DNA of 64,000 nucleotides from Parvibaculaceae bacterium (GCA_965226465.1 OZ245362.1:112232-176231); one strand, 5' to 3'. Numbered from the stretch's first letter, positions 11,557 to 28,608 are shown. Notes: a model not told the origin generated them from the letters alone. A program made the numbers and translations.

Positions 11557-14712
<3,156 letters not shown>

Positions 14713-14713
14713 C

Positions 14714-16120
14714 ATGAAAACCATTATTCATATTTTGCTTGTCGGGGTCATTGCTCTTTTTGCGGTGTCTGAGGTGCAAGCCAAGCGCAAAAAGCCTAAT
14801 CTTGTCCTTATACTGACGGATGACCAAGGCTATGCCGATGTTGGGTTTAATGGTAGCACCGAGATTAAGACGCCTAATATTGACCGTATTGCTTATGAGG
14901 GGGTGCGCTTTGATAGCGGATATGTGTCTTTTCCTGTCTGTGGTCCAAGTCGGGCGGGGCTTTTGACGGGGAGATATCAGGATAGGTTTGGCTTTATTCT
15001 GAACCCAAGCCCTGACCCTAAGGATAAAAAGGGGGGGCTTCCTAAGAGTGAGAAAAATATCGCTGAGGTGCTGAAGCCTGCGGGATATCGGAGCGCAATT
15101 TTGGGGAAATGGCATATGGGCTCGCACCCTATTTTTCATCCCAATCGGCGGGGCTTTGATTATTTCTTTGGGTTTCTGACCGGTGGGCATAAATATTTTC
15201 CTCATGCGCTGAAATATAATTCTGTGGAGGAGACGCTGCAAAAATGGGATTGGTATTCAACCAGAATCCTCAGAAATAATAAGCGGATTGATATTGACGA
15301 ATATCTTACCGATGAGATTTCCAATGAGGCGGTCGCCTTCATTAAGAGGGAAAAGAAAAAGCCCTTTTTTCTTTATGTCGCCTATAACGCTCCGCATGGA
15401 CCTTTGCAGGCAACGGAGAAATATCTCAAGCGATATAGCCATATTAAAAATAAGAAGCGGCGCACCTATGCCGCTATGGTGAGCGCCGTTGATGATGGGG
15501 TCGGGCGCATACTGGATGTGCTGGAAGAGGAGGGGCTGGATGAGGATACGATTGTGGTTTTCCTGTCTGATAATGGCGGTCCTGTTAAGAAAAATGCGTC
15601 CAATAATGGGGTATTGCGGGAGGGGAAAAGTAGCCCCTTTGAGGGTGGTATCAGAGTGCCTTTTGCGATGCGCTGGAAGGGGGTTATTCCAGCCGGCATG
15701 GATTATAAAGAGCCTGTTATTTCGCTGGATATTCTTGCTACCATTGTCGGGGAGGCTAAGGTCAGTATGCGGAGGAATAAAAAGCTGGATGGGGTCAATC
15801 TTGTTCCCTATTTGACGGGCAAGAAGAAAGGCTCGCCCCATGATATTTTATTTTGGAGGGGGTGGCGCAAGCAATTTAGCGTCGCCAGAATGGGGGAGGA
15901 TAAGATTGTCAATGTGAAGAAAAAACCCATGCTCTATAATTTGGAGGAGGATATTTCCGAAAAAAATGACCTCTATTGGCGGGATAAAAAAACCTATAAA
16001 GCCCTTAATGAAAAGCTGGATGAGTGGAAAAAGGACTTCTCGCCGCCTGCTTTTCAGGGGCTTTTGGGCTGGAAGGCTGAGAATAAAAAGAGGGGCAATA
16101 GGAATAAAGATAATGAGTAA
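14714..16120 (+). CDS. exported sulfatase (arylsulfatase family)
   Basis: Signal peptide, LILTDDQGYADVG, active site CGPSRAGLLTGRY, GKWHMG, FLSDNGG. ATG 14714 lies 2 nt after the upstream stop. The track start at 14525 is an overlap artefact. Confidence 0.85.
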   Translation: MKTIIHILLVGVIALFAVSEVQAKRKKPNLVLILTDDQGYADVGFNGSTEIKTPNIDRIAYEGVRFDSGYVSFPVCGPSRAGLLTGRYQDRFGFILNPSPDPKDKKGGLPKSEKNIAEVLKPAGYRSAILGKWHMGSHPIFHPNRRGFDYFFGFLTGGHKYFPHALKYNSVEETLQKWDWYSTRILRNNKRIDIDEYLTDEISNEAVAFIKREKKKPFFLYVAYNAPHGPLQATEKYLKRYSHIKNKKRRTYAAMVSAVDDGVGRILDVLEEEGLDEDTIVVFLSDNGGPVKKNASNNGVLREGKSSPFEGGIRVPFAMRWKGVIPAGMDYKEPVISLDILATIVGEAKVSMRRNKKLDGVNLVPYLTGKKKGSPHDILFWRGWRKQFSVARMGEDKIVNVKKKPMLYNLEEDISEKNDLYWRDKKTYKALNEKLDEWKKDFSPPAFQGLLGWKAENKKRGNRNKDNE

Positions 16121-16187
16121 AAGAGGTGTTCGCTTGACGGCAAAGGATTATCGGGTTAGCTTTATGAATAGAACTTCTGGGGGGAAA

Positions 16188-17594
16188 ATGAAATTTTTTA
16201 TCCATATTTTGCTTGTCGGGGCAATTGCCCTTTTTGCGGTGTCTGATGCTTCTGCCAAGCGCAAAAAGCCTAATCTTATTCTTATACTGACCGATGACCA
16301 AGGCTATGCCGATGTCGGGTTTAATGGCAGCACGGAGATTAAAACGCCCAATATTGACCGTATCGCTTATGAGGGGGCACGTTTTGATAGCGGATATGTG
16401 TCTTTTCCTGTCTGTGGTCCGAGCCGTGCGGGGCTTTTGACGGGGAGATATCAGGATAGGTTTGGCTTTATTCTGAACCCTTCTATTAATCCTGCTGACA
16501 AAGCGGGGCTTCCCAAAAGTGAGAAAAATATTGCTGAGGTGCTGAAGCCTGCGGGATATCGCACGGCTATTCTTGGGAAATGGCATATGGGGACGCATCC
16601 TGTTTTTCATCCTAATCGTCGGGGCTTTGATTATTTTTGGGGTTTTCTTTCGGGCGGGCATAGATATTTTCCCCATGAGCTGACATTGAACTCTCTTGAT
16701 GAGGTGGAAAGAGCTTGGCAATGGTATAGCACGCGAATCTTGCGAAATAATAAGCGGATTGATATTGACGAATATCTGACTGATGAGATTTCCAATGAGG
16801 CGGTCGCTTTCATTAAGAGGGAAAAGAAAAAGCCCTTCTTTCTTTATGTCGCCTATAATGCGCCCCATGCGCCTTTGCAGGCTACGGAGAAATATCTCAA
16901 GCGATTTAGTCATGTTGAGAATAAGAGGCGCAGAACCTATCTCGCTATGGTGAGTGCGGTTGATGATGGGGTCGGGCGCATTTTGGACACGTTGGAAGAG
17001 GAGGGGCTGGATGAGGATACGATTGTGGTTTTCCTTTCCGATAATGGCGGGGCGTTGAAGAAAAATGCTTCCGATAATGGCATATTGCGGGACGGCAAGG
17101 GTAGTCCCTTTGAGGGCGGTATCAGGGTGCCTTTTGCGATGCGCTGGAAGGGGGTTATTCCCGCTGGCTTGGATTATAAGCCTGCCGTTATTTCGCTTGA
17201 TATTCTTGCTACCATTGTCGGTGAGGCTAAGGTCAGTATGCGGAGGAATAAGAAGCTGGATGGGGTCAATCTCATTCCCTATCTGACGGGGAAGAAAAGG
17301 GGCGAGCCTCATGATATTTTATTCTGGCGGGGCTGGAATAGGAAATATACCGTTGCTAGGGCGGGGGGGGATAAGATTATTACCGCCAAGAAAACGCCTA
17401 TGCTTTATAATTTGGAGGAGGATATTTCCGAAAAAAATAATCTCTATCGGAAGAATAAAAAGCGTTATGAAAGCCTCAATGCAAAAGTGGAGGAGTGGAA
17501 AGAGGATTTCTCGCCGCCTATTTTTACCGGTCTTGGGGAATGGACGGGCAATAATAATAATAAAAAAAATAACAAGAAAAAGAAAAGGAGATGA
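16188..17594 (+). CDS. exported sulfatase, tandem paralogue of 14714-16120
   Basis: Most positions are identical by eye to the preceding sulfatase, with the same motifs. C-terminal tail NNNNKKNNKKKKRR. Start at ATG 16188 with ggggggaaa upstream. Confidence 0.85.
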   Translation: MKFFIHILLVGAIALFAVSDASAKRKKPNLILILTDDQGYADVGFNGSTEIKTPNIDRIAYEGARFDSGYVSFPVCGPSRAGLLTGRYQDRFGFILNPSINPADKAGLPKSEKNIAEVLKPAGYRTAILGKWHMGTHPVFHPNRRGFDYFWGFLSGGHRYFPHELTLNSLDEVERAWQWYSTRILRNNKRIDIDEYLTDEISNEAVAFIKREKKKPFFLYVAYNAPHAPLQATEKYLKRFSHVENKRRRTYLAMVSAVDDGVGRILDTLEEEGLDEDTIVVFLSDNGGALKKNASDNGILRDGKGSPFEGGIRVPFAMRWKGVIPAGLDYKPAVISLDILATIVGEAKVSMRRNKKLDGVNLIPYLTGKKRGEPHDILFWRGWNRKYTVARAGGDKIITAKKTPMLYNLEEDISEKNNLYRKNKKRYESLNAKVEEWKEDFSPPIFTGLGEWTGNNNNKKNNKKKKRR

Positions 17595-19144
17595 GTATGA
17601 TGCCGTTTGTTTTCAGAACTCTCGCTATTGCTCTCCTCTTGCCGTTGGTTTTTGCTTGCAAGGAGGAGGGCAAACCCATGCATGGCATGGGTAAGAAGCC
17701 CAATGTGGTTATTTTTTATATTGATGATTTGGGTTATGGTGACCTCGGCTCTTATGGTGCAAAGGGGGTTAAAACGCCCGAAATTGACCGCATTGCTAAG
17801 AAGGGTGTGCGCTTTACGGACGCTCATAGCTCGGCGGCTACCTGCACGCCAAGCCGATATTCCTTATTGACCGGCGAGCATGGCTTTCGTAGCAAAGCGG
17901 CTATTCTGCCGGGTGATGCGCCCGCTCTTATCCGTCCGGGCAAGCCGACATTGGCAACGCTTTTCAAAAAGGCGGGCTATCAAACTGCCGTCGTCGGCAA
18001 ATGGCATTTGGGGCTGGGCAATGGCAATGTCAATTGGAATAAGAAAGTCGCACCCGGTCCCTTGGAGATAGGGTTTGATTATAGTTTTCTGCTTCCTGCT
18101 ACGGGGGATAGGGTGCCGACGGTTTATCTGGATGGTCACCATGTGGTGAGCCTTGATAGGAAAGATCCGATTAAGGTTAGTTATCGGGGTAAGGTGGGCA
18201 AGCGTCCTACCGGTTTGGAGCGTCCTGACCTGCTGCGGGTCAAGGCGGATAAGCAACATAGTCAGACGATTATTAATGGTGTCAGTCGCATTGGCACGAT
18301 GGGTGGCGGTGAGAGTGCGCTGTGGGTGGATGAGGATTTCCCCGATATTTTTACCGAAAAAGCCGTGCAGTTTATGCGTGAAAATAAGGATAAGCCTTTT
18401 TTCCTTTTTCATTCCTATCATGATATTCATGTGCCGCGCTTGCCCCATCCGCGCTTTGAGGGGAAGTCCCGCATGGGTCCAAGGGGGGATGCGATTGTGC
18501 AGATGGATTGGATGACCGGTCAGATTATTCGTGAGCTGGAAAAGCTTGGGATTGCGGATAATACGCTTATTATTTTTACGAGCGATAATGGTCCTGTGCT
18601 GAATGATGGCTATGAGGATGAGGCGGTGGAGAAGCTTGGGAAGCATAAGCCTTGGGGTCCGTTTCGGGGGGGGAAATATAGTGCTTATGAGGCGGGAACC
18701 AGGGTGCCGACGATTGTGTATTGGCCCGGAACCATAAAGCCCAAAACCAGCAAGGTGCTGTTTTCGCAGATTGATATTTATGCATCGCTCGCCAAGCTTA
18801 TCGGCATTGAGCTTGAGGATGGCGAGGCGATGGATAGCATGGAGGTGCTGGATGTTATGCTCGGCAAAAAAGGGCGCGAGCGCAGGGAGCTTTTGGAGGA
18901 ATCGGTTGCGACCAATGCGCTCAGAGACGGCAAGTGGAAGTTTATTCCGATAACGCCTTCCAAGCGTAATCATGAGTTTCTGAAAAGGAAAAATATTGAG
19001 GGCGGCTTTAAGCCCTATCCGCAATTATATAATCTGGATAAGGATATTGGCGAGCGCAATAATCTCGCCGAGCAACACCCTGAGCGTGTTAAAGCTATGG
19101 CGGCGCGCATTAAGGATATTGTTAAAAATGGCTACTCCCGCTAG
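17591..19144 (+). CDS. sulfatase, probable lipoprotein
   Basis: Lipobox LVFAC. IFYIDDLGYGDLG, active site CTPSRYSLLTG, GKWHLG, FTSDNGP. ATGA overlap with the upstream stop. Confidence 0.85.
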   Translation: MSMMPFVFRTLAIALLLPLVFACKEEGKPMHGMGKKPNVVIFYIDDLGYGDLGSYGAKGVKTPEIDRIAKKGVRFTDAHSSAATCTPSRYSLLTGEHGFRSKAAILPGDAPALIRPGKPTLATLFKKAGYQTAVVGKWHLGLGNGNVNWNKKVAPGPLEIGFDYSFLLPATGDRVPTVYLDGHHVVSLDRKDPIKVSYRGKVGKRPTGLERPDLLRVKADKQHSQTIINGVSRIGTMGGGESALWVDEDFPDIFTEKAVQFMRENKDKPFFLFHSYHDIHVPRLPHPRFEGKSRMGPRGDAIVQMDWMTGQIIRELEKLGIADNTLIIFTSDNGPVLNDGYEDEAVEKLGKHKPWGPFRGGKYSAYEAGTRVPTIVYWPGTIKPKTSKVLFSQIDIYASLAKLIGIELEDGEAMDSMEVLDVMLGKKGRERRELLEESVATNALRDGKWKFIPITPSKRNHEFLKRKNIEGGFKPYPQLYNLDKDIGERNNLAEQHPERVKAMAARIKDIVKNGYSR

Positions 19145-19706: not shown

Positions 19707-19878
19707 ACCCCCCTAACCCCCCTTCGCTCGGAACACTTCGTGTTCCTGCGCGCAAAAAGCTAGACCCCAGCAAAGCTGGGGAGCTTTTTTCACCCTTTTT
19801 TAATAGGCATGTAATGCCTATTAAAAAATAGGGGGGGATAAGGAGTGCGCCCTGAGGGGGGCGCATTTTTTATTTTTT
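19707..19878. repeat. mosaic multi-hairpin intergenic repeat, copy B (full)
   Basis: Near-identical to copy A over about 170 nt. The few substitutions fall mostly in loops or spacers (cctgacc/cctaacc, cactttgtg/cacttcgtg). Confidence 0.85.
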
Positions 19879-20232
19879 GCGGAGGAGGTGGGGGAGGGTT
19901 AGGGCGTCTTTTAGCCAGAATAGGCGGATAGCTAAGAAGGGGAGGGCTATGGTGATGCCGAGGATTGTGGTGCCTAGGGGGGTGAAGGGGTTGACGGTGC
20001 CGCCGGTGTAGAGGATGAAGCCCATTATGGCTAGGAGCTCGGGGGCGAGGAGTAGTAGTAGGAGGTAGTAGGGGTGGAGTCCGGGCATGATGCCTAGTTG
20101 GAGGCATAGGAGGGTGAAGGTGGCGGTGAAGTATAGGAGGGCGCCTTTTTTGTCGCCGGTGTAGAGGCGGTGGGCGCCGAAGCGGCCTAGAAATAGCCAG
20201 AGGAGATAGGCGGTTATTGTTCGTTTTATCAT
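19870..20232 (-). CDS. TM2-domain membrane protein
   Basis: AYLLWLFLGRFGAHRLYTGD matches the TM2 signature, and several TM helices follow. The start is uncertain: ATG 20232 gives the usual short N-terminus, while the track start at 20331 adds a P-rich extension. Confidence 0.65.
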   Translation of the reverse strand: MIKRTITAYLLWLFLGRFGAHRLYTGDKKGALLYFTATFTLLCLQLGIMPGLHPYYLLLLLLAPELLAIMGFILYTGGTVNPFTPLGTTILGITIALPFLAIRLFWLKDALTLPHLLRKK

Positions 20233-20282
20233 GGGGGTATTTTGCGCCTTTTTGGGGGGGGTTGGCAAGGGGGGGATAGGGC

Positions 20283-20310
20283 TTGACATTGGGGAGTTTC
20301 CGTTTATAAA
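20283..20310 (+). promoter_or_regulatory. candidate sigma70 promoter for the 23S-5S-tRNA unit
   Basis: TTGACA (20283-20288), 16-nt spacer, TATAAA (20305-20310). About 360 nt upstream of the mature 23S 5' end. Confidence 0.35.
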
Positions 20311-20649
20311 AGCCCAACACAATCCTTCCATCTTCGCTTATCGTGCAAAATGTGAAAGGGTGTGGGTTGCGTGAAATTTGGCAAAATATGCTGAAAACCG
20401 CGTAACATGCTGTTTGATATTGTGAAGAAGAGTGATATGCCTGGACTTCTTGTCCGCATGTAAGCCTATCAACTTATGTGCATATATTTATATATACCTA
20501 TATTTATATATAAAAGACTTGTAATGGGTGCCTGTTCCAAATAGGTGCCGAGCAAACCCACGCTTTTTGGGTATATCCAATTAAGGTCATCCGCTTATGT
20601 GAGAATAAGCGGATAATAATCGTAATCATTGCATCATTTCTATCCAAGA

Positions 20650-20670
20650 AATGGGCGGTGATAATGAGAA
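20650..20670 (+). other. 23S leader half of the precursor processing stem
   Basis: aatgggcggtgataatgagaa is complementary at 19 of 21 positions to the trailer at 24096-24116. Confidence 0.6.
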
Positions 20671-21096
20671 TAATCAAGCGTTTAAGAGCATTTGGTGAAT
20701 GCCTTGGCGTTGAGAGGCGATGAAGGACGTGGCACGCTGCGATAAGCTACGGGGAGTTGTGAGCAAACTCTGATCCGTAGATTTCCGAATGGGGAAACCC
20801 AGCCCTTCGGGGCTATCTTCTGCTGAATTAATAGGCAGAAGAGGCAAACCCGGGAAACTGAAACATCTAAGTACCCGGAGGAAAGGACATCAACCGAGAC
20901 TCCGTTAGTAGTGGCGAGCGAACGCGGACCAGGCCAATGCCTGTTATTTTGTAACCAGAAGGAGCTGGGAAGCTCCGCCAGAGTCGGTAATAGCCCGGTA
21001 TGGGTATGCAAAATAATAGGATCCGAGTAAGGCGGGACACGTGAAATCCTGTCTGAATATGGGGGGACCACCCTCCAAGCCTAAGTACTCCTCAAC

Positions 21097-21142
<46 letters not shown>

Positions 21143-21700
21143 AATGAGGGGAGTGAAATAGTCCCTGAAACCGAATGCTTACAATCAGTTGGAGCCTCTT
21201 TTGAGGTGACAGCGTACCTTTTGTATAATGGGTCAGCGACTTAGTCCGGCGTGCGAGCTTAAACCGTTAGGTGTAGGCGTAGCGAAAGCGAGTCTGAACA
21301 GGGCAACCTAGTTCGTCGGATTAGACCCGAAGCCGAGTGATCTAGCCATGGCCAGGTTGAAGGTGCAGTAACATGCACTGGAGGACCGAACCCACCTATG
21401 TTGAAAAATGGGGGGATGAGCTGTGGCTAGGGGTGAAAGGCCAATCAAACTCGGATATAGCTGGTTCTCCGCGAAAACTATTTAGGTAGTGCGTCGCGTG
21501 AATACTCTCGGGGGTAGAGCACTGGATGGGCTAGGGGGCTTCACCGCTTACCAAACCTAACCAAACTCCGAATACCGAGAAGTAATGCGTGGCAGACACA
21601 CTATGGGTGCTAAGGTCCATAGTGGAAAGGGAAACAGCCCGGACCGTCGTCTAAGGTCCCTAAGTTATGGCTAAGTGGGAAAGGATGTAGGGGTTCCAAA

Positions 21701-21749
<49 letters not shown>

Positions 21750-21825
21750 CAGCTCACTGGTCTAATTAAGAACCCCCGCGCCGAAGATATATCGGGGCTA
21801 AAGCCATACACCGAAGACACGGGTG

Positions 21826-22519
21826 CTTGAGATCGTTTACTATAGTTAGTAAAGTAAAAAATAAAATGTGGGAAAACCTTATTCCTTCCCTTGCATTATT
21901 TCTGCCTTTTCCATAAGGTCAAAGCAGAATAAGCAAGAGAAGGGGAGCAATACGCTCATGGGTTCAGAAAAAGAAAAAAATACTGAGAGCGCAATCAAAA
22001 AGAGATTGCAGTCTATTGCCAAAACACTTCAGGAAAATAATTTTGAAGTGAAATTTGGGCAAGGAAGTGAAGGCAATCGCCTTTATCTCAAAAGTGTATT
22101 TCGTAAAAATATCTCTTCTGACTCCTTTAGCTGGCGTTTTGATAATTTTGATGTCTGGATAACAGAAACAGATGATGGGAAGGATATGCTCATTTGCAGA
22201 TTTAAGCATGATGTGGATAGTCCAGCCTGTTTTAAAGAATATGAAACGCTTAAAGAAAAAATAAGCGAGCGGATAATGAGGGATATAAAAGCAGAAACAG
22301 GAATTAAAGTTTGCTTTGAGAAGAGAACAGGATATCAAGCAGTGTCTTTTGATGATATTGCGAAGATGGTTTTTCTGCTGATAGTTGGAGGAATGCTAAT
22401 CATATCTTTTGATGGATTTTACAGTAATCTTTTAGGAGGTTTTCTTGTTTTCATAAGCTTCATGTTTTTTCTTACCTACGCCATAAGTTATATCAAAAAC
22501 TATAGTAATCGGTCTCAAG
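21826..22519 (+). other. 23S rRNA intervening sequence (IVS), helix 45 site
   Basis: Conserved 23S sequence stops at ...ccgaagacacgggtg and resumes at cgcggtagcggagcgttccgtaagcc. The 694-nt AT-rich insert is bounded by the 22-nt inverted repeat 21826-21847 / 22498-22519 (one G.U pair and one mismatch). Confidence 0.8.
21891..21919 (+). promoter_or_regulatory. candidate internal sigma70 promoter inside the IVS
   Basis: TTGCAT, 17-nt spacer, TAAGGT. About 40 nt upstream of the IVS ORF start. Confidence 0.25.
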
Positions 22520-22527
22520 CGCGGTAG
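21958..22527 (+). CDS. hypothetical membrane-anchored protein encoded within the 23S IVS (189 aa)
   Basis: ATG 21958 is preceded by aggggag (21941-21947). The product has a soluble N-terminal region of about 140 aa, then two hydrophobic helices (MVFLLIVGGMLIISF, LLGGFLVFISFMFFLTYAISYI). The alternative GTG at 21868 seems less likely. Translation is unproven. Confidence 0.4.
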   Translation: MGSEKEKNTESAIKKRLQSIAKTLQENNFEVKFGQGSEGNRLYLKSVFRKNISSDSFSWRFDNFDVWITETDDGKDMLICRFKHDVDSPACFKEYETLKEKISERIMRDIKAETGIKVCFEKRTGYQAVSFDDIAKMVFLLIVGGMLIISFDGFYSNLLGGFLVFISFMFFLTYAISYIKNYSNRSQAR

Positions 22528-22686
22528 CGGAGCGTTCCGTAAGCCAGTGAAGGCGATTTGTAAGAATTGCTGGAGGTATCGGAAGTGAGAATGCTGACAT
22601 GAGTAACGATAAGGAGGGTGAAAAACCCTCCCGCCGAAAGTCCAAGGGTTCCTGCCCAATGTTAATCAGGGCAGGGTTAGTCGGCA

Positions 22687-22722
<36 letters not shown>

Positions 22723-23080
22723 GAGGTTAATATTCCTCAACCTGTGGGTAGTGACAGATCGCAGAAGTAGTTTTCCCTTATCGGATTGAGAAGGCTGCCA
22801 CGTGGTCTCAGGAAATAGCTCCCACATTTAAGACCGTACCCTAAACCGACACAGGTGGACAGGTAGAGAATACCAAGGCGCTTGAGAGAACGATGCTGAA
22901 GGAACTCGGCAAAATACCTCCGTAACTTCGGGAGAAGGAGGCCCTATAGGGAGGCAACTCTCTATGGGGGGCACAGACCAGGGGGTAGCGACTGTTTATT
23001 AAAAACACAGGGCTCTGCGAAGTCGCAAGACGACGTATAGGGTCTGACGCCTGCCCGGTGCCGGAAGGTTAAGACGCGGA

Positions 23081-23187
<107 letters not shown>

Positions 23188-23446
23188 CGACTTCCCCACT
23201 GTCTCCAGCATCGACTCAGTGAAATTGAATTCCCCGTGAAGATGCGGGGTTCCTGCGGTTAGACGGAAAGACCCCGTGCACCTTTACTACAGCTTTGCAG
23301 TGGCGTTAGTGACGACATGTGTAGGATAGGTGGTAGGCTTTGAAGCCAGGGCGCAAGCCCAGGTGGAGCCGCAATGTGAAATACCACCCTTATCTTTATT
23401 GACGTCTAACCGCGGCCCGTTATCCGGGTCCGGAACCCTGCATGGT

Positions 23447-23493
<47 letters not shown>

Positions 23494-23615
23494 GCAATGG
23501 TAGGCTCAGGCTGGTCGGAAATCAGCCGTCGAGTGCAATGGCATAAGCCTGCCTGACTGCGAGAGTGACAGCTCGAGCAGAGACGAAAGTCGGTCATAGT
23601 GATCCGGTGGTCCCA

Positions 23616-23670
<55 letters not shown>

Positions 23671-23945
23671 GACCCCCAAGAGTCCATATCGACGGGGTTG
23701 TTTGGCACCTCGATGTCGGCTCATCTCATCCTGGGGCTGAAGCAGGTCCCAAGGGTTTGGCTGTTCGCCAATTAAAGAGGTACGTGAGCTGGGTTTAGAA
23801 CGTCGTGAGACAGTTTGGTCCCTATCTGCCGTGGGTGTTGGAAAGTTGAGAGGAGTTGTCCCTAGTACGAGAGGACCGGGATGAACATATCTCTGGTGGA
23901 GCTGTTGTCGCGCCAGCGGCATTGCAGCATAGCTATATATGGAAA

Positions 23946-23979
<34 letters not shown>

Positions 23980-24095
23980 CCCTCGAAACAAACTATCCCT
24001 GAAGAGCCGTGGTAGACTACCACGTTGATAGGCCGGGTGTGGAAGCGCAGCAATGCGTGGAGCTTACCGGTACTAATTGCTCGTTCGGCTTGGTT

Positions 24096-24116
24096 TTCTC
24101 ATTTTCTCCGCCCATT
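24096..24116 (+). other. 23S trailer half of the precursor processing stem
   Basis: ttctcattttctccgcccatt pairs with the leader at 20650-20670. Confidence 0.6.
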
Positions 24117-24174
24117 GCGGGGTGCGCCCTTGTGGTGCGCTCCCAATGTGCGGGGCGCGATTTTGTCTTATATT

Positions 24175-24292
24175 GGTCTGGTGATTATAGCGAGGAGCTC
24201 ACACCCGATCCCTTTCCGAACTCGGAAGTTAATCTCCTCCGCGCCGATGGTACTGCATCTTAAGGTGTGGCAGAGTAGGTCGTTGCCAGGCC
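24175..24292 (+). rRNA. rrf: 5S ribosomal RNA
   Basis: ccgaactcggaagttaa...gcgccgatggtact...agagtaggtc strings, with terminal helix ggtctggtg / tgccaggcc. Confidence 0.9.
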
Positions 24293-24399: not shown

Positions 24400-24478
<79 letters not shown>

Positions 24479-27079: not shown

Positions 27080-28111
27080 TTATTTATTGAGGGCGATGTG
27101 GGCGATTTTTTTCATTAGGGTGGGGAGGGGGTGGTGGGGGAGGTGGGGTTTGGGTATCCATTTTTGGTGGGGGTGGGTTTTTAGGGTTTTTGTTTGGGCG
27201 GTTTTAATTTCTATTGTTAGGTGGAAATGGGTGAAGCTGTGGGTGATGGTTCCTTTTTTTTGCCATTTTAGGTTCCAGGGGGGGGTGGAGGTTTGTTTTG
27301 TTTCTTGCCATTGGTTTGTGGGGAAGCCGGTCATGCCGCCTAATAGTCCTTTTTCTTTTCGTTTTTCCAGGAGTAGTTCGCCTTTGTGGTTTTCTATGAC
27401 ATAGGCGGTGGCGTATCTTGTGGGCTTTTTTTTGGGGGGGGGTCTTTTGGGTAGTTGATTGGCGAGGTTTTGTTTTTGGGCTTGGCAGTATTTTTCTATT
27501 GGGCAGAGGGGGCATTTGGGGGTTTTGGGGGTGCATATCATGGTTCCCATATCCATTAGGGCTTGTGCCCATTCGCCTGATTTTTTTTGGGGGGATAGGG
27601 CTTGGGCTTTTTGCCATAGTTCTTTTTTTGCTTTGGGGAGGGGGGTGGTGATGGCGTAAATTCTTGCCATTATGCGTTCTATATTGCCGTCTATGGGGGT
27701 GGTGGGTTTGCCATAGGCGATGGCGGCGATGGCGGCGGCGGTGTATTTGCCGATGCCGGGGAGGGCTTCTAGCTCTTTTATAGTTTCGGGGATTTTGCCG
27801 CCGTGATGGGTTGTGATTTCTTTGGCGCATTTTATGAGATTGCGGGCACGGCTGTAATAGCCAAGCCCCGCCCATGCGGTTAGGACTTCTTGTTCGTCGG
27901 CTTTTGCTAGTTCCTCTAGGGTTTTCCAGCTTGTGGTGAAGTGGTTGAAATAGTCCAAAACGGTGACCACTCTTGTCTGCTGTAGCATTATCTCGGAAAG
28001 CCATATATGATAGGGGTTGGGTGCTTTCTCATTGCGCCATGGTAGCGAGCGTTTGTGAAGCCGATACCAGTCCAATATGCTTTTGTGAAAAACCCGCTTA
28101 TCAACCATCAA
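27080..28111 (-). CDS. mutY: A/G-specific adenine DNA glycosylase
   Basis: LDWYRLHKRSLPWR...PYHIWLSEIMLQQTRV, an HhH-GPD region, a 4Cys cluster (CTPKTPKCPLCPIEKYC) and a NUDIX-like C-terminus. Confidence 0.9.
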   Translation of the reverse strand: MMVDKRVFHKSILDWYRLHKRSLPWRNEKAPNPYHIWLSEIMLQQTRVVTVLDYFNHFTTSWKTLEELAKADEQEVLTAWAGLGYYSRARNLIKCAKEITTHHGGKIPETIKELEALPGIGKYTAAAIAAIAYGKPTTPIDGNIERIMARIYAITTPLPKAKKELWQKAQALSPQKKSGEWAQALMDMGTMICTPKTPKCPLCPIEKYCQAQKQNLANQLPKRPPPKKKPTRYATAYVIENHKGELLLEKRKEKGLLGGMTGFPTNQWQETKQTSTPPWNLKWQKKGTITHSFTHFHLTIEIKTAQTKTLKTHPHQKWIPKPHLPHHPLPTLMKKIAHIALNK

Positions 28112-28125
28112 GTAAAACCAATATC

Positions 28126-28608
28126 ATGCCAAATTATAGAAAAAAAATCGGTGCCAAACCTATCGGAAGCCTTTTTCATTCCATTCTCGCTCCTATTCAT
28201 AAAAGAAGGGGGTTTTCCGAAACCCATATCCTCCAGCATTGGAACGAAATTATGGGCGATAGTCTTGCCCGCTTTTCCCGCCCCGTCAAGCTGTCCAAAG
28301 CGCATGCCCAAGGGCGCAGTCTGACGGTGATGGTGGAGGCGGGGTTTGCGACCAGCTTGCAACACCAAACTACGCAAATTCTTGAGCGGATTAATTTTTA
28401 TTATGGGTATAATGCGATTACCAAGATCCATATTATTCAGGGTCCGGTGGGGGCGGAAGGGGGCGCAAAAAAATCAAAGCGCTTGGCGGAGCCTGAAAGT
28501 GGGGGGCAAGAGGATAAAAATCTGCAACAATTCCAGTCGGCTGGCTTGAAGGAGGCGTTTTCGCGCTTGCGGCATTATGTGGAAAAGAAAAATAATCCAC
28601 GAAAATAA
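28126..28608 (+). CDS. DUF721-family protein
   Basis: About 160 aa, in the conserved position next to mutY as in alphaproteobacteria. Start at ATG 28126; the track start at 27973 overlaps mutY. Confidence 0.5.
   Translation: MPNYRKKIGAKPIGSLFHSILAPIHKRRGFSETHILQHWNEIMGDSLARFSRPVKLSKAHAQGRSLTVMVEAGFATSLQHQTTQILERINFYYGYNAITKIHIIQGPVGAEGGAKKSKRLAEPESGGQEDKNLQQFQSAGLKEAFSRLRHYVEKKNNPRK

Follow-up and report, generated by a model that had tools for sequence, protein, structure and literature searches.

Here we describe an insert in the 23S ribosomal RNA (rRNA) gene of a Parvibaculaceae bacterium (GCA_965226465.1 OZ245362.1:112232-176231), located in a stretch of 64,000 nucleotides that we refer to as the window and from whose first letter all positions are counted. 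The reading we favour, and judge reasonably likely, is that the insert is a classical RNase III-excised intervening sequence (IVS) of helix 45, which carries a foreign and probably silent orphan gene or gene fragment as its cargo. The insert is AT-rich, is closed by a long stem that continues the rRNA helix, and contains an open reading frame (ORF) of 189 codons that ends outside it, in conserved 23S sequence.

The complete bacterial 23S rRNA gene occupies positions 20672-24097 of the plus strand (Rfam RF02541, LSU_rRNA_bacteria; 2704 bits, model positions 1-2925), the strand on which all features of the rRNA unit described below also lie. It measures 3426 nt, or about 2744 nt without the insert. 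When the region 21640-22720 was aligned locally using cmscan, its flanks matched model positions 1028-1423 and the whole AT-rich block was left as an unaligned insert, inside a hairpin beginning at model position 1206. With the universally conserved CACCGAAG before it and GGUAG-GGAGCGUU after it, this hairpin is identified as helix 45 (H45). Helix 45 is a classic site for 23S inserts. A previous interpretation of the window by a model that was given only the DNA (the sequence-only reading) had let conserved 23S end at 21825 and resume at 22520 and had placed the insertion in helix 45. Alignment to the Rfam covariance model of the large-subunit rRNA reproduced both boundaries and the site, whereas the proposed length of ~694 nt needs to be shortened since the outer part of the stem is native H45. 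The 5′ strand of the native stem is GUGCUUGAG at 21823-21831, recognized by paired Rfam consensus columns from model position 1206 and by a 6-9-bp stem in relatives. The 3′ strand is CUCAAGCGC at 22514-22522, as judged from the Rfam consensus, related 23S genes and the hairpin fold. The insert proper therefore comprises about 682 nt (21832-22513), which are unaligned in cmscan, differ in composition, are absent from the nearest 23S genes recovered, and replace the helix-45 loop.

The two ends of the block form an inverted repeat. A repeat search recovered arms of 23 nt at 21825-21847 and 22498-22520 that are 91% complementary, and direct reading bore out the single G.U pair and single mismatch that had been described. 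Including the native base of H45, the closing stem has 24 pairs, with one U-U mismatch and one G.U pair. As a minimal hairpin it reaches a free energy of −34.8 kcal/mol, compared with −14.4 ± 2.9 in shuffled sequences (z = −7.1). The outer ~6-9 bp of this stem are the native H45 stem, and the terminal ~15 nt at each of the insert's ends lengthen the helix. No third copy of the repeat occurs in the 64-kb window, where 0.01 chance matches are expected. The GC content of the insert interior is 0.35, against 0.53 for the remaining 23S, so the earlier description of an AT-rich block (35% versus 53% GC) holds. Judged at the level of sequence, the insert has the features of an RNase III-excised helix-45 IVS: the loop of H45 is replaced, and the complementary ends make a duplex of at least about 20 bp that is continuous with the rRNA helix. 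Position and stem thus support the stem-closed architecture that the sequence-only reading had ascribed to the element.

The ORF (21958-22527) begins with ATG and encodes 189 amino acids. Its frame is open from 21868 and would give a product of 219 amino acids if begun at GTG. To assess how probable such a frame is by chance, the same 702 nt were simulated 20,000 times with a first-order Markov model. The longest open stretches in these simulations had a mean length of 72 codons and a maximum of 203, and none of the 20,000 reached the 220 codons observed. In addition, 65% of first codon positions are purines and G is more frequent at position 1 (0.28) than at position 3 (0.18), which is a coding signature. 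The ORF is not a chance open frame. Its GC content is 0.35 and its GC at third codon positions (GC3) 0.32, compared with 0.42-0.57 and 0.45-0.60, respectively, for host genes. Together, a length beyond that of all simulations, the codon signature and a protein-like structural model indicate that the insert is, or recently was, protein-coding DNA.

This model, obtained with single-sequence AlphaFold2 (AF2), comprises an N-terminal α/β domain and two C-terminal transmembrane (TM) helices. Its confidence is moderate, with a mean predicted local distance difference test (pLDDT) score of 67.6 and 103 residues at or above 70. The antisense shadow ORF of 124 amino acids, which served as an internal control, reached a pLDDT of 49.9, and just 4 of its residues scored 70 or higher. 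The predicted topology consists of a helix (4-26), five strands, a helix (89-114), a strand (117-123) and the helices 131-151 and 158-187. The latter two coincide with predicted TM helix 1 (residues ~131-151, nucleotides 22348-22410; Kyte-Doolittle mean >1.6 in 19-residue windows) and TM helix 2 (residues ~158-180, nucleotides 22429-22497; by hydropathy), and the C-terminal tail is basic. The 189-residue ORF, the Shine-Dalgarno-like aggggag in front of it and the two hydrophobic segments at its C terminus, all noted previously, were thereby reproduced.

Among about 15 billion proteins overall no homologue of the ORF product was found. It retrieved only itself in a word-indexed search of 5.8 billion clusters, where it forms a singleton cluster, and when 1.84 billion representatives were searched exhaustively with phmmer. 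No match came from NCBIfam, PHROGs, PADLOC or PDB sequences, and Foldseek comparison of the model with PDB and BFVD returned nothing at E≤1e-3. Likewise, tblastn against plasmids and phages and a back-translated pattern scan of metagenome contigs yielded nothing. The sole match in a pattern scan of viral contigs (L002), a phage tape-measure-like protein of 808 amino acids, shares only EYETLKEK with the product and was rejected as chance. By these sequence comparisons the product is an absolute orphan in the collections searched, among which the species genomes were covered by a 23S-flank pattern scan (see below) and not scanned with the ORF protein itself. No nucleotide homologue of the insert was found in plasmids, in the loci fetched or in the remaining 64-kb window.

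The searches also bear on the known types of protein encoded in 23S inserts. In Pfam the product matched none of 23S_rRNA_IVP/S23p (PF05635), LAGLIDADG, GIY-YIG, HNH, reverse transcriptase or transposase, even at E≤10. Nor does the moderately confident AF2 model, which is an α/β domain with two TM helices, show the small soluble four-helix bundle of S23p. The ORF product is not an S23p/IVS protein, a homing endonuclease or a transposase, and its dissimilarity to the S23p family, as proposed from the sequence, was upheld by both profile search and predicted fold.

We then considered the signals for translation. The leader of the ORF inside the insert is ~110 nt long and contains an imperfect 20-bp hairpin (21883-21944). 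The minimum free energy (MFE) fold of 21848-21975 has −32.6 kcal/mol (z = −2.8), and none of 200 shuffles was as stable. The Shine-Dalgarno (SD)-like AGGGGAG (21941-21947) is located 10 nt 5′ of the ATG and is paired in the MFE structure. The 3′ arm of the leader hairpin holds most of it, namely the A-A-G-G-G of AAGGGGAG, and the remaining GAGC is part of a small hairpin just 5′ of the ATG. A permissive Rfam scan gave only spurious matches resembling miRNA precursors, which coincide with the leader hairpin. At its other end the ORF passes right through the 3′ arm of the closing stem, which in this frame reads NYSNRSQA, and terminates in conserved 23S, not inside the insert. Its TAG stop codon (22525-22527) is the UAG of the conserved GGUAGCGGAGCG of mature 23S, outside the stem and 3 nt past the last stem pair at 22522. 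The surrounding GGTAGCGGAGCG is also present in insert-free relatives.

We propose that about 682 nt of foreign AT-rich DNA took the place of the helix-45 loop, with ends that form a 24-bp extension of the helix. By analogy with IVSs of Salmonella, Leptospira, Coxiella and Alphaproteobacteria, RNase III would cut this stem in pre-23S rRNA without subsequent religation. IVSs of the RNase III-excised type are well documented in Alphaproteobacteria (PMC4990558, PMC8708148). The flanks of the 23S gene, 20576-20690 on the 5′ side and 24082-24177 on the 3′ side, pair with each other (RNAduplex, −66.7 kcal/mol) to form the usual long pre-23S processing stem, which makes the transcript one of the normal, RNase III-processed kind. 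The 23S rRNA would then exist as two pieces of about 1.15 kb and 1.58 kb, presumably held together in the 50S subunit, and the excised RNA would be short-lived and degraded, as it is in Coxiella and Salmonella. By origin the ORF appears to be a real coding sequence, whether a whole gene or its 5′ portion, that stems from a low-GC donor, and it may be viewed as cargo that is dispensable for excision.

Translation of the ORF is probably poor or absent, given that a hairpin locks up its SD and that the stop codon would be missing from the excised RNA. Any RNase III cut in the stem leaves an RNA that ends at or before position 22522, so the released IVS RNA would be a non-stop message and its product subject to tagging by transfer-messenger RNA (tmRNA). 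That the frame runs off the end of the insert suggests a captured gene truncated at its 3′ end rather than a gene adapted to life in an IVS. The idea that a membrane protein is actually made from within the rRNA gene finds no support in the features we could read: the excisable element does not include the stop codon, a hairpin holds the ribosome-binding site, the composition is foreign to the host, and no homologous insert occurs in any collection searched.

Related 23S genes were collected by pattern scans for the 23S flanks, covering 185,579 species genomes and metagenome contigs. The only species genome recovered was that of Oceaniradius (L001), with an insert-free 23S gene that is 85% identical. 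The metagenome contigs provided 27 23S loci of at most 86% identity, none of them with an insert, which was thus found in 0 of 28 loci from these scans. In the nine most similar loci (84-86%), helix 45 is a hairpin of 17-22 nt and the exact downstream sequence GGTAGCGGAGCGTTCCGTAAGCC is kept, as in L001 (85%) and in L003, L004, L013, L018, L021 and L029 (84-86%). For the 3′ half of the 23S gene, the closest sequences among plasmids and chromids are rrn copies of Hyphomicrobiales, at 88%. The insert was accordingly absent from every related 23S gene recovered, the nearest of which are 84-88% identical. The proximity of the 23S gene to Hyphomicrobiales and Oceaniradius, together with the alphaproteobacterial gene order 23S-5S-tRNA-fMet, indicates that the host is a divergent alphaproteobacterium with unlinked rRNA genes.

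Five metagenome 23S loci from an unrelated lineage (L007, L008, L015, L020 and L027; ~75% identical to the window) have an AT-rich helix 45 that is moderately extended, to ~29 nt (AACTATATAATTTGGATAATTATATAGTT). This extension resembles a miniature IVS at the site of the insert. Its AACTATA/TATAGTT ends are similar to the inner part of the closing stem in the window (ACTATAGTT/AACTATAGT), which is probably a coincidence.

Several observations weigh against an IVS with a recently acquired and silent cargo. The description of the insert as sporadic and recently acquired is based on comparison with 23S genes that are just 84-88% identical. An intact frame of 189-219 codons in 35%-GC DNA would decay quickly without selection, and its persistence in such AT-rich sequence implies either recent acquisition or selection. 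Moreover, a plausible SD is found at a workable distance from the ATG. In an alternative view, the ORF is functional and expressed: a gene that encodes a small bitopic membrane protein, exploits the rRNA promoter and is read from unprocessed pre-23S or from a transcript begun within the insert. The intact and highly non-random frame, the SD-like sequence with its ATG, and the AF2 model, protein-like with its two clear TM helices and basic tail at the C terminus, would all fit such a gene. A weak promoter-like TTGAGA-17-TAAAGT (21827-21855) could provide an mRNA that, lacking the 5′ arm, would escape RNase III; however, promoter-like sites in the region are no commoner than in shuffled sequences (7 versus 5.0 ± 2.4), and this one is no better than chance. 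The SD is sequestered, pre-23S is the only RNA that holds both start and stop since the latter lies beyond the excisable unit, and codon usage and GC content are foreign. Searches provided no homologue and hence no evidence of selection, and the IVS ORF of the best-studied analogue is not expressed (PMC4990558). On balance we regard a functional gene as unlikely. That the ORF is a working gene and signals the state of rRNA processing through its product is very improbable. Under that proposal, the presence of start and stop together only in uncut pre-23S and the ribosome-binding site in a hairpin would mean that the two-TM protein is made only when helix-45 processing fails or lags. It would imply a membrane-acting, possibly toxic or growth-arresting protein coupled to ribosome-biogenesis stress, whereas normal cleavage would turn the RNA into a non-stop message, with tmRNA tagging and destruction of whatever product was made.

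The origin of the insert can also be viewed differently. It may be the remnant of a transposable element, such as a miniature inverted-repeat transposable element or insertion sequence-like element, that entered the H45 loop and whose terminal inverted repeats came to serve as a processing stem. The ~15 nt of inverted repeat beyond the native helix and the foreign composition are compatible with this, transposase-bearing 23S inserts with inverted repeats of 15-27 nt in Nostoc and Deinococcus offer a precedent (PMC2672173), and an origin of IVSs by transposition has been proposed (PMC4990558). Against it, Pfam, NCBIfam and PHROGs revealed no transposase, nuclease or recombinase domain, direct reading disclosed no target-site duplication or direct repeat beside the inverted repeat, and no second copy of repeat or insert was present in the 64-kb window or in the plasmid, phage, viral-contig or metagenome collections, making a transposon remnant distinctly unlikely. 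A self-splicing group I or group II intron, with the ORF in a loop and the 23S rRNA religated, has a negligible probability: the size of about 0.7 kb and the internal ORF recall ORF-bearing rRNA introns of candidate phyla radiation (CPR) bacteria (PMC11270868), but no intron family in Rfam matched at the gathering score or, with the insert alone as query, at E≤10. The ORF product has no homing-endonuclease domain, the insert sits at the tip of a variable hairpin rather than in the conserved core, and the ends form a simple long duplex. The fact that a single copy was seen could point to an assembly or chimera artefact, or to an expansion segment that is retained and never excised. We consider both extremely improbable, because misassembly would not set foreign DNA at a hairpin apex with 15 helix-extending pairs in perfect register, and a 680-nt expansion with a 24-bp RNase III-type duplex would be without bacterial precedent. 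The RNase III-excised IVS with probably silent cargo remains our preferred interpretation.

The 23S gene is followed by the 5S rRNA gene (24177-24291; Rfam RF00001, 88.6 bits) and a tRNA-Met (CAT) gene (24401-24477; ARAGORN and Rfam). tRNA-fMet is usually the final gene in alphaproteobacterial rrn operons. Rfam and ARAGORN detected no 16S, tRNA-Ile or tRNA-Ala (spacer tRNA) gene within 20 kb 5′ of the 23S gene, and the rRNA genes of this genome are unlinked. These 20 kb contain sulfatase and other protein genes instead. The 23S-5S-tRNA-fMet unit has its own AT-rich upstream region of ~340 nt (20332-20671). Within it, 20480-20515 is very AT-rich and includes the near-direct repeat ATATATTTATATATA ... 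CTATATTTATATATA, ~160 nt 5′ of the 23S processing stem; this stretch may be the promoter or UP-element region of the 23S operon. Compared with the Rfam bacterial consensus, the 5′ domain of the 23S gene (20940-21160) is shorter by ~42 nt at model positions ~274-315 and by ~8 nt near 399-406. The length of the gene without its insert is similar to that of the aligned alphaproteobacterial relatives.

Directly 5′ of the 23S gene and in divergent orientation is a gene for a TM2-domain protein (19870-20331, minus strand). Further upstream there are three tandem paralogous sulfatase genes (14525-19144, plus strand) encoding arylsulfatase/choline-sulfatase-like proteins, listed with 517-542 amino acids. 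As listed, the first and second overlap by ~155 nt, so that the second probably begins farther downstream than its listed start. On the 3′ side of the rrn unit, a gene for DciA (DnaC/DnaI antecedent; 27973-28608, plus strand) is found near mutY and SMC. All 2-kb bins of 1-64000 show positive GC skew (0.07-0.34), an unusually strong and uniform asymmetry for the plus strand.

IVSs are usually regarded as short, non-coding, selfish stem-loops, and to our knowledge the only recurrent protein cargo of IVSs is S23p, in addition to occasional transposases. Element type and site are textbook in the present case. What is new is the orphan cargo with its α/β domain and two TM helices, the ORF that overruns the stem into mature rRNA, and a size near the upper end for IVSs, the last of which agrees with the unusual length claimed by the sequence-only reading. 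Its view of the genetic arrangement as unusual stands for the cargo, which is new, but ORF-bearing 23S inserts are already known with S23p (Coxiella, Leptospira and Brucella) or transposases (Nostoc and Deinococcus) (PMC2672173), making the arrangement less unprecedented than suggested. The insert implies that the helix-45 site can accommodate about 0.7 kb of unrelated foreign coding DNA. It bears on the tolerance of this site and on the origin of IVSs, as arbitrary DNA captured between helix-extending repeats. If the ORF were expressed, a protein gene would be under the control of one of the strongest promoters of the cell and gated by rRNA processing. As what is so far a single unconserved instance, the insert is mainly of value as a catalogued curiosity. 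It also calls for caution in annotation: pipelines that mask rRNA miss such ORFs, and those that do not will report a ‘hypothetical membrane protein’ within an rRNA gene.

Among known systems, the S23p (23S_rRNA_IVP) IVSs of Leptospira and Brucella/Xanthomonas likewise interrupt the 23S rRNA as large, stem-closed elements that contain an ORF. RNase III excises them, and a sporadic distribution suggests horizontal transfer. Ralph and McClelland are said to have described IVSs of this type of up to about 0.75 kb in 1993. In contrast to the ORF described here, the S23p ORFs lie wholly within the loop, and the cargo family in the window is a different and unique one. The short IVSs of Salmonella, Yersinia, Campylobacter and Helicobacter share the site, the replacement of the H45 loop by an extended AU-rich stem-loop and the presumed fragmentation by RNase III (PMC2801512, PMC2672173). 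However, they measure about 30-180 nt and have no ORF, compared with about 690 nt and 189 codons in the window.

Large 23S inserts with inverted repeats of 15-27 nt and an ORF are also found in Nostoc PCC 7120 (1471 nt) and Deinococcus radiodurans (1067 nt) (PMC2672173). These encode recognizable transposases and have further genomic copies, whereas the insert in the window lacks a transposase domain and was not seen a second time. Insertions in CPR rRNA genes are similar in size (0.5-1 kb), and some fit neither intron class and are of unknown function (PMC11270868). Their annotated ORFs, in contrast, almost all encode LAGLIDADG or GIY-YIG homing endonucleases and lie at conserved core sites, and the host here is an alphaproteobacterium.

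The helix-45 IVS of Coxiella burnetii is 428-444 nt long, contains an S23p ORF and is closed by a 28-bp stem that is cut by RNase III; this removes the SD of the ORF, and the protein was not detected (PMC4990558). The window insert is about 60% longer, and its ORF is not S23p and overruns the 3′ arm. In Coxiella the IVS is kept in all strains, whereas the insert described here is without known relative. The two elements nevertheless agree in their location in helix 45, in a long terminal stem (28 bp in Coxiella against 24 bp in the window) and in a sense-strand ORF within the pre-23S transcript. The 23S pieces of ~1.2 and 1.6-1.7 kb in Coxiella compare with about 1.15 and 1.58 kb predicted for the window. 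In both, cleavage by RNase III would deprive the ORF of a translation signal, which is the SD in Coxiella and the stop codon here (PMC4990558).
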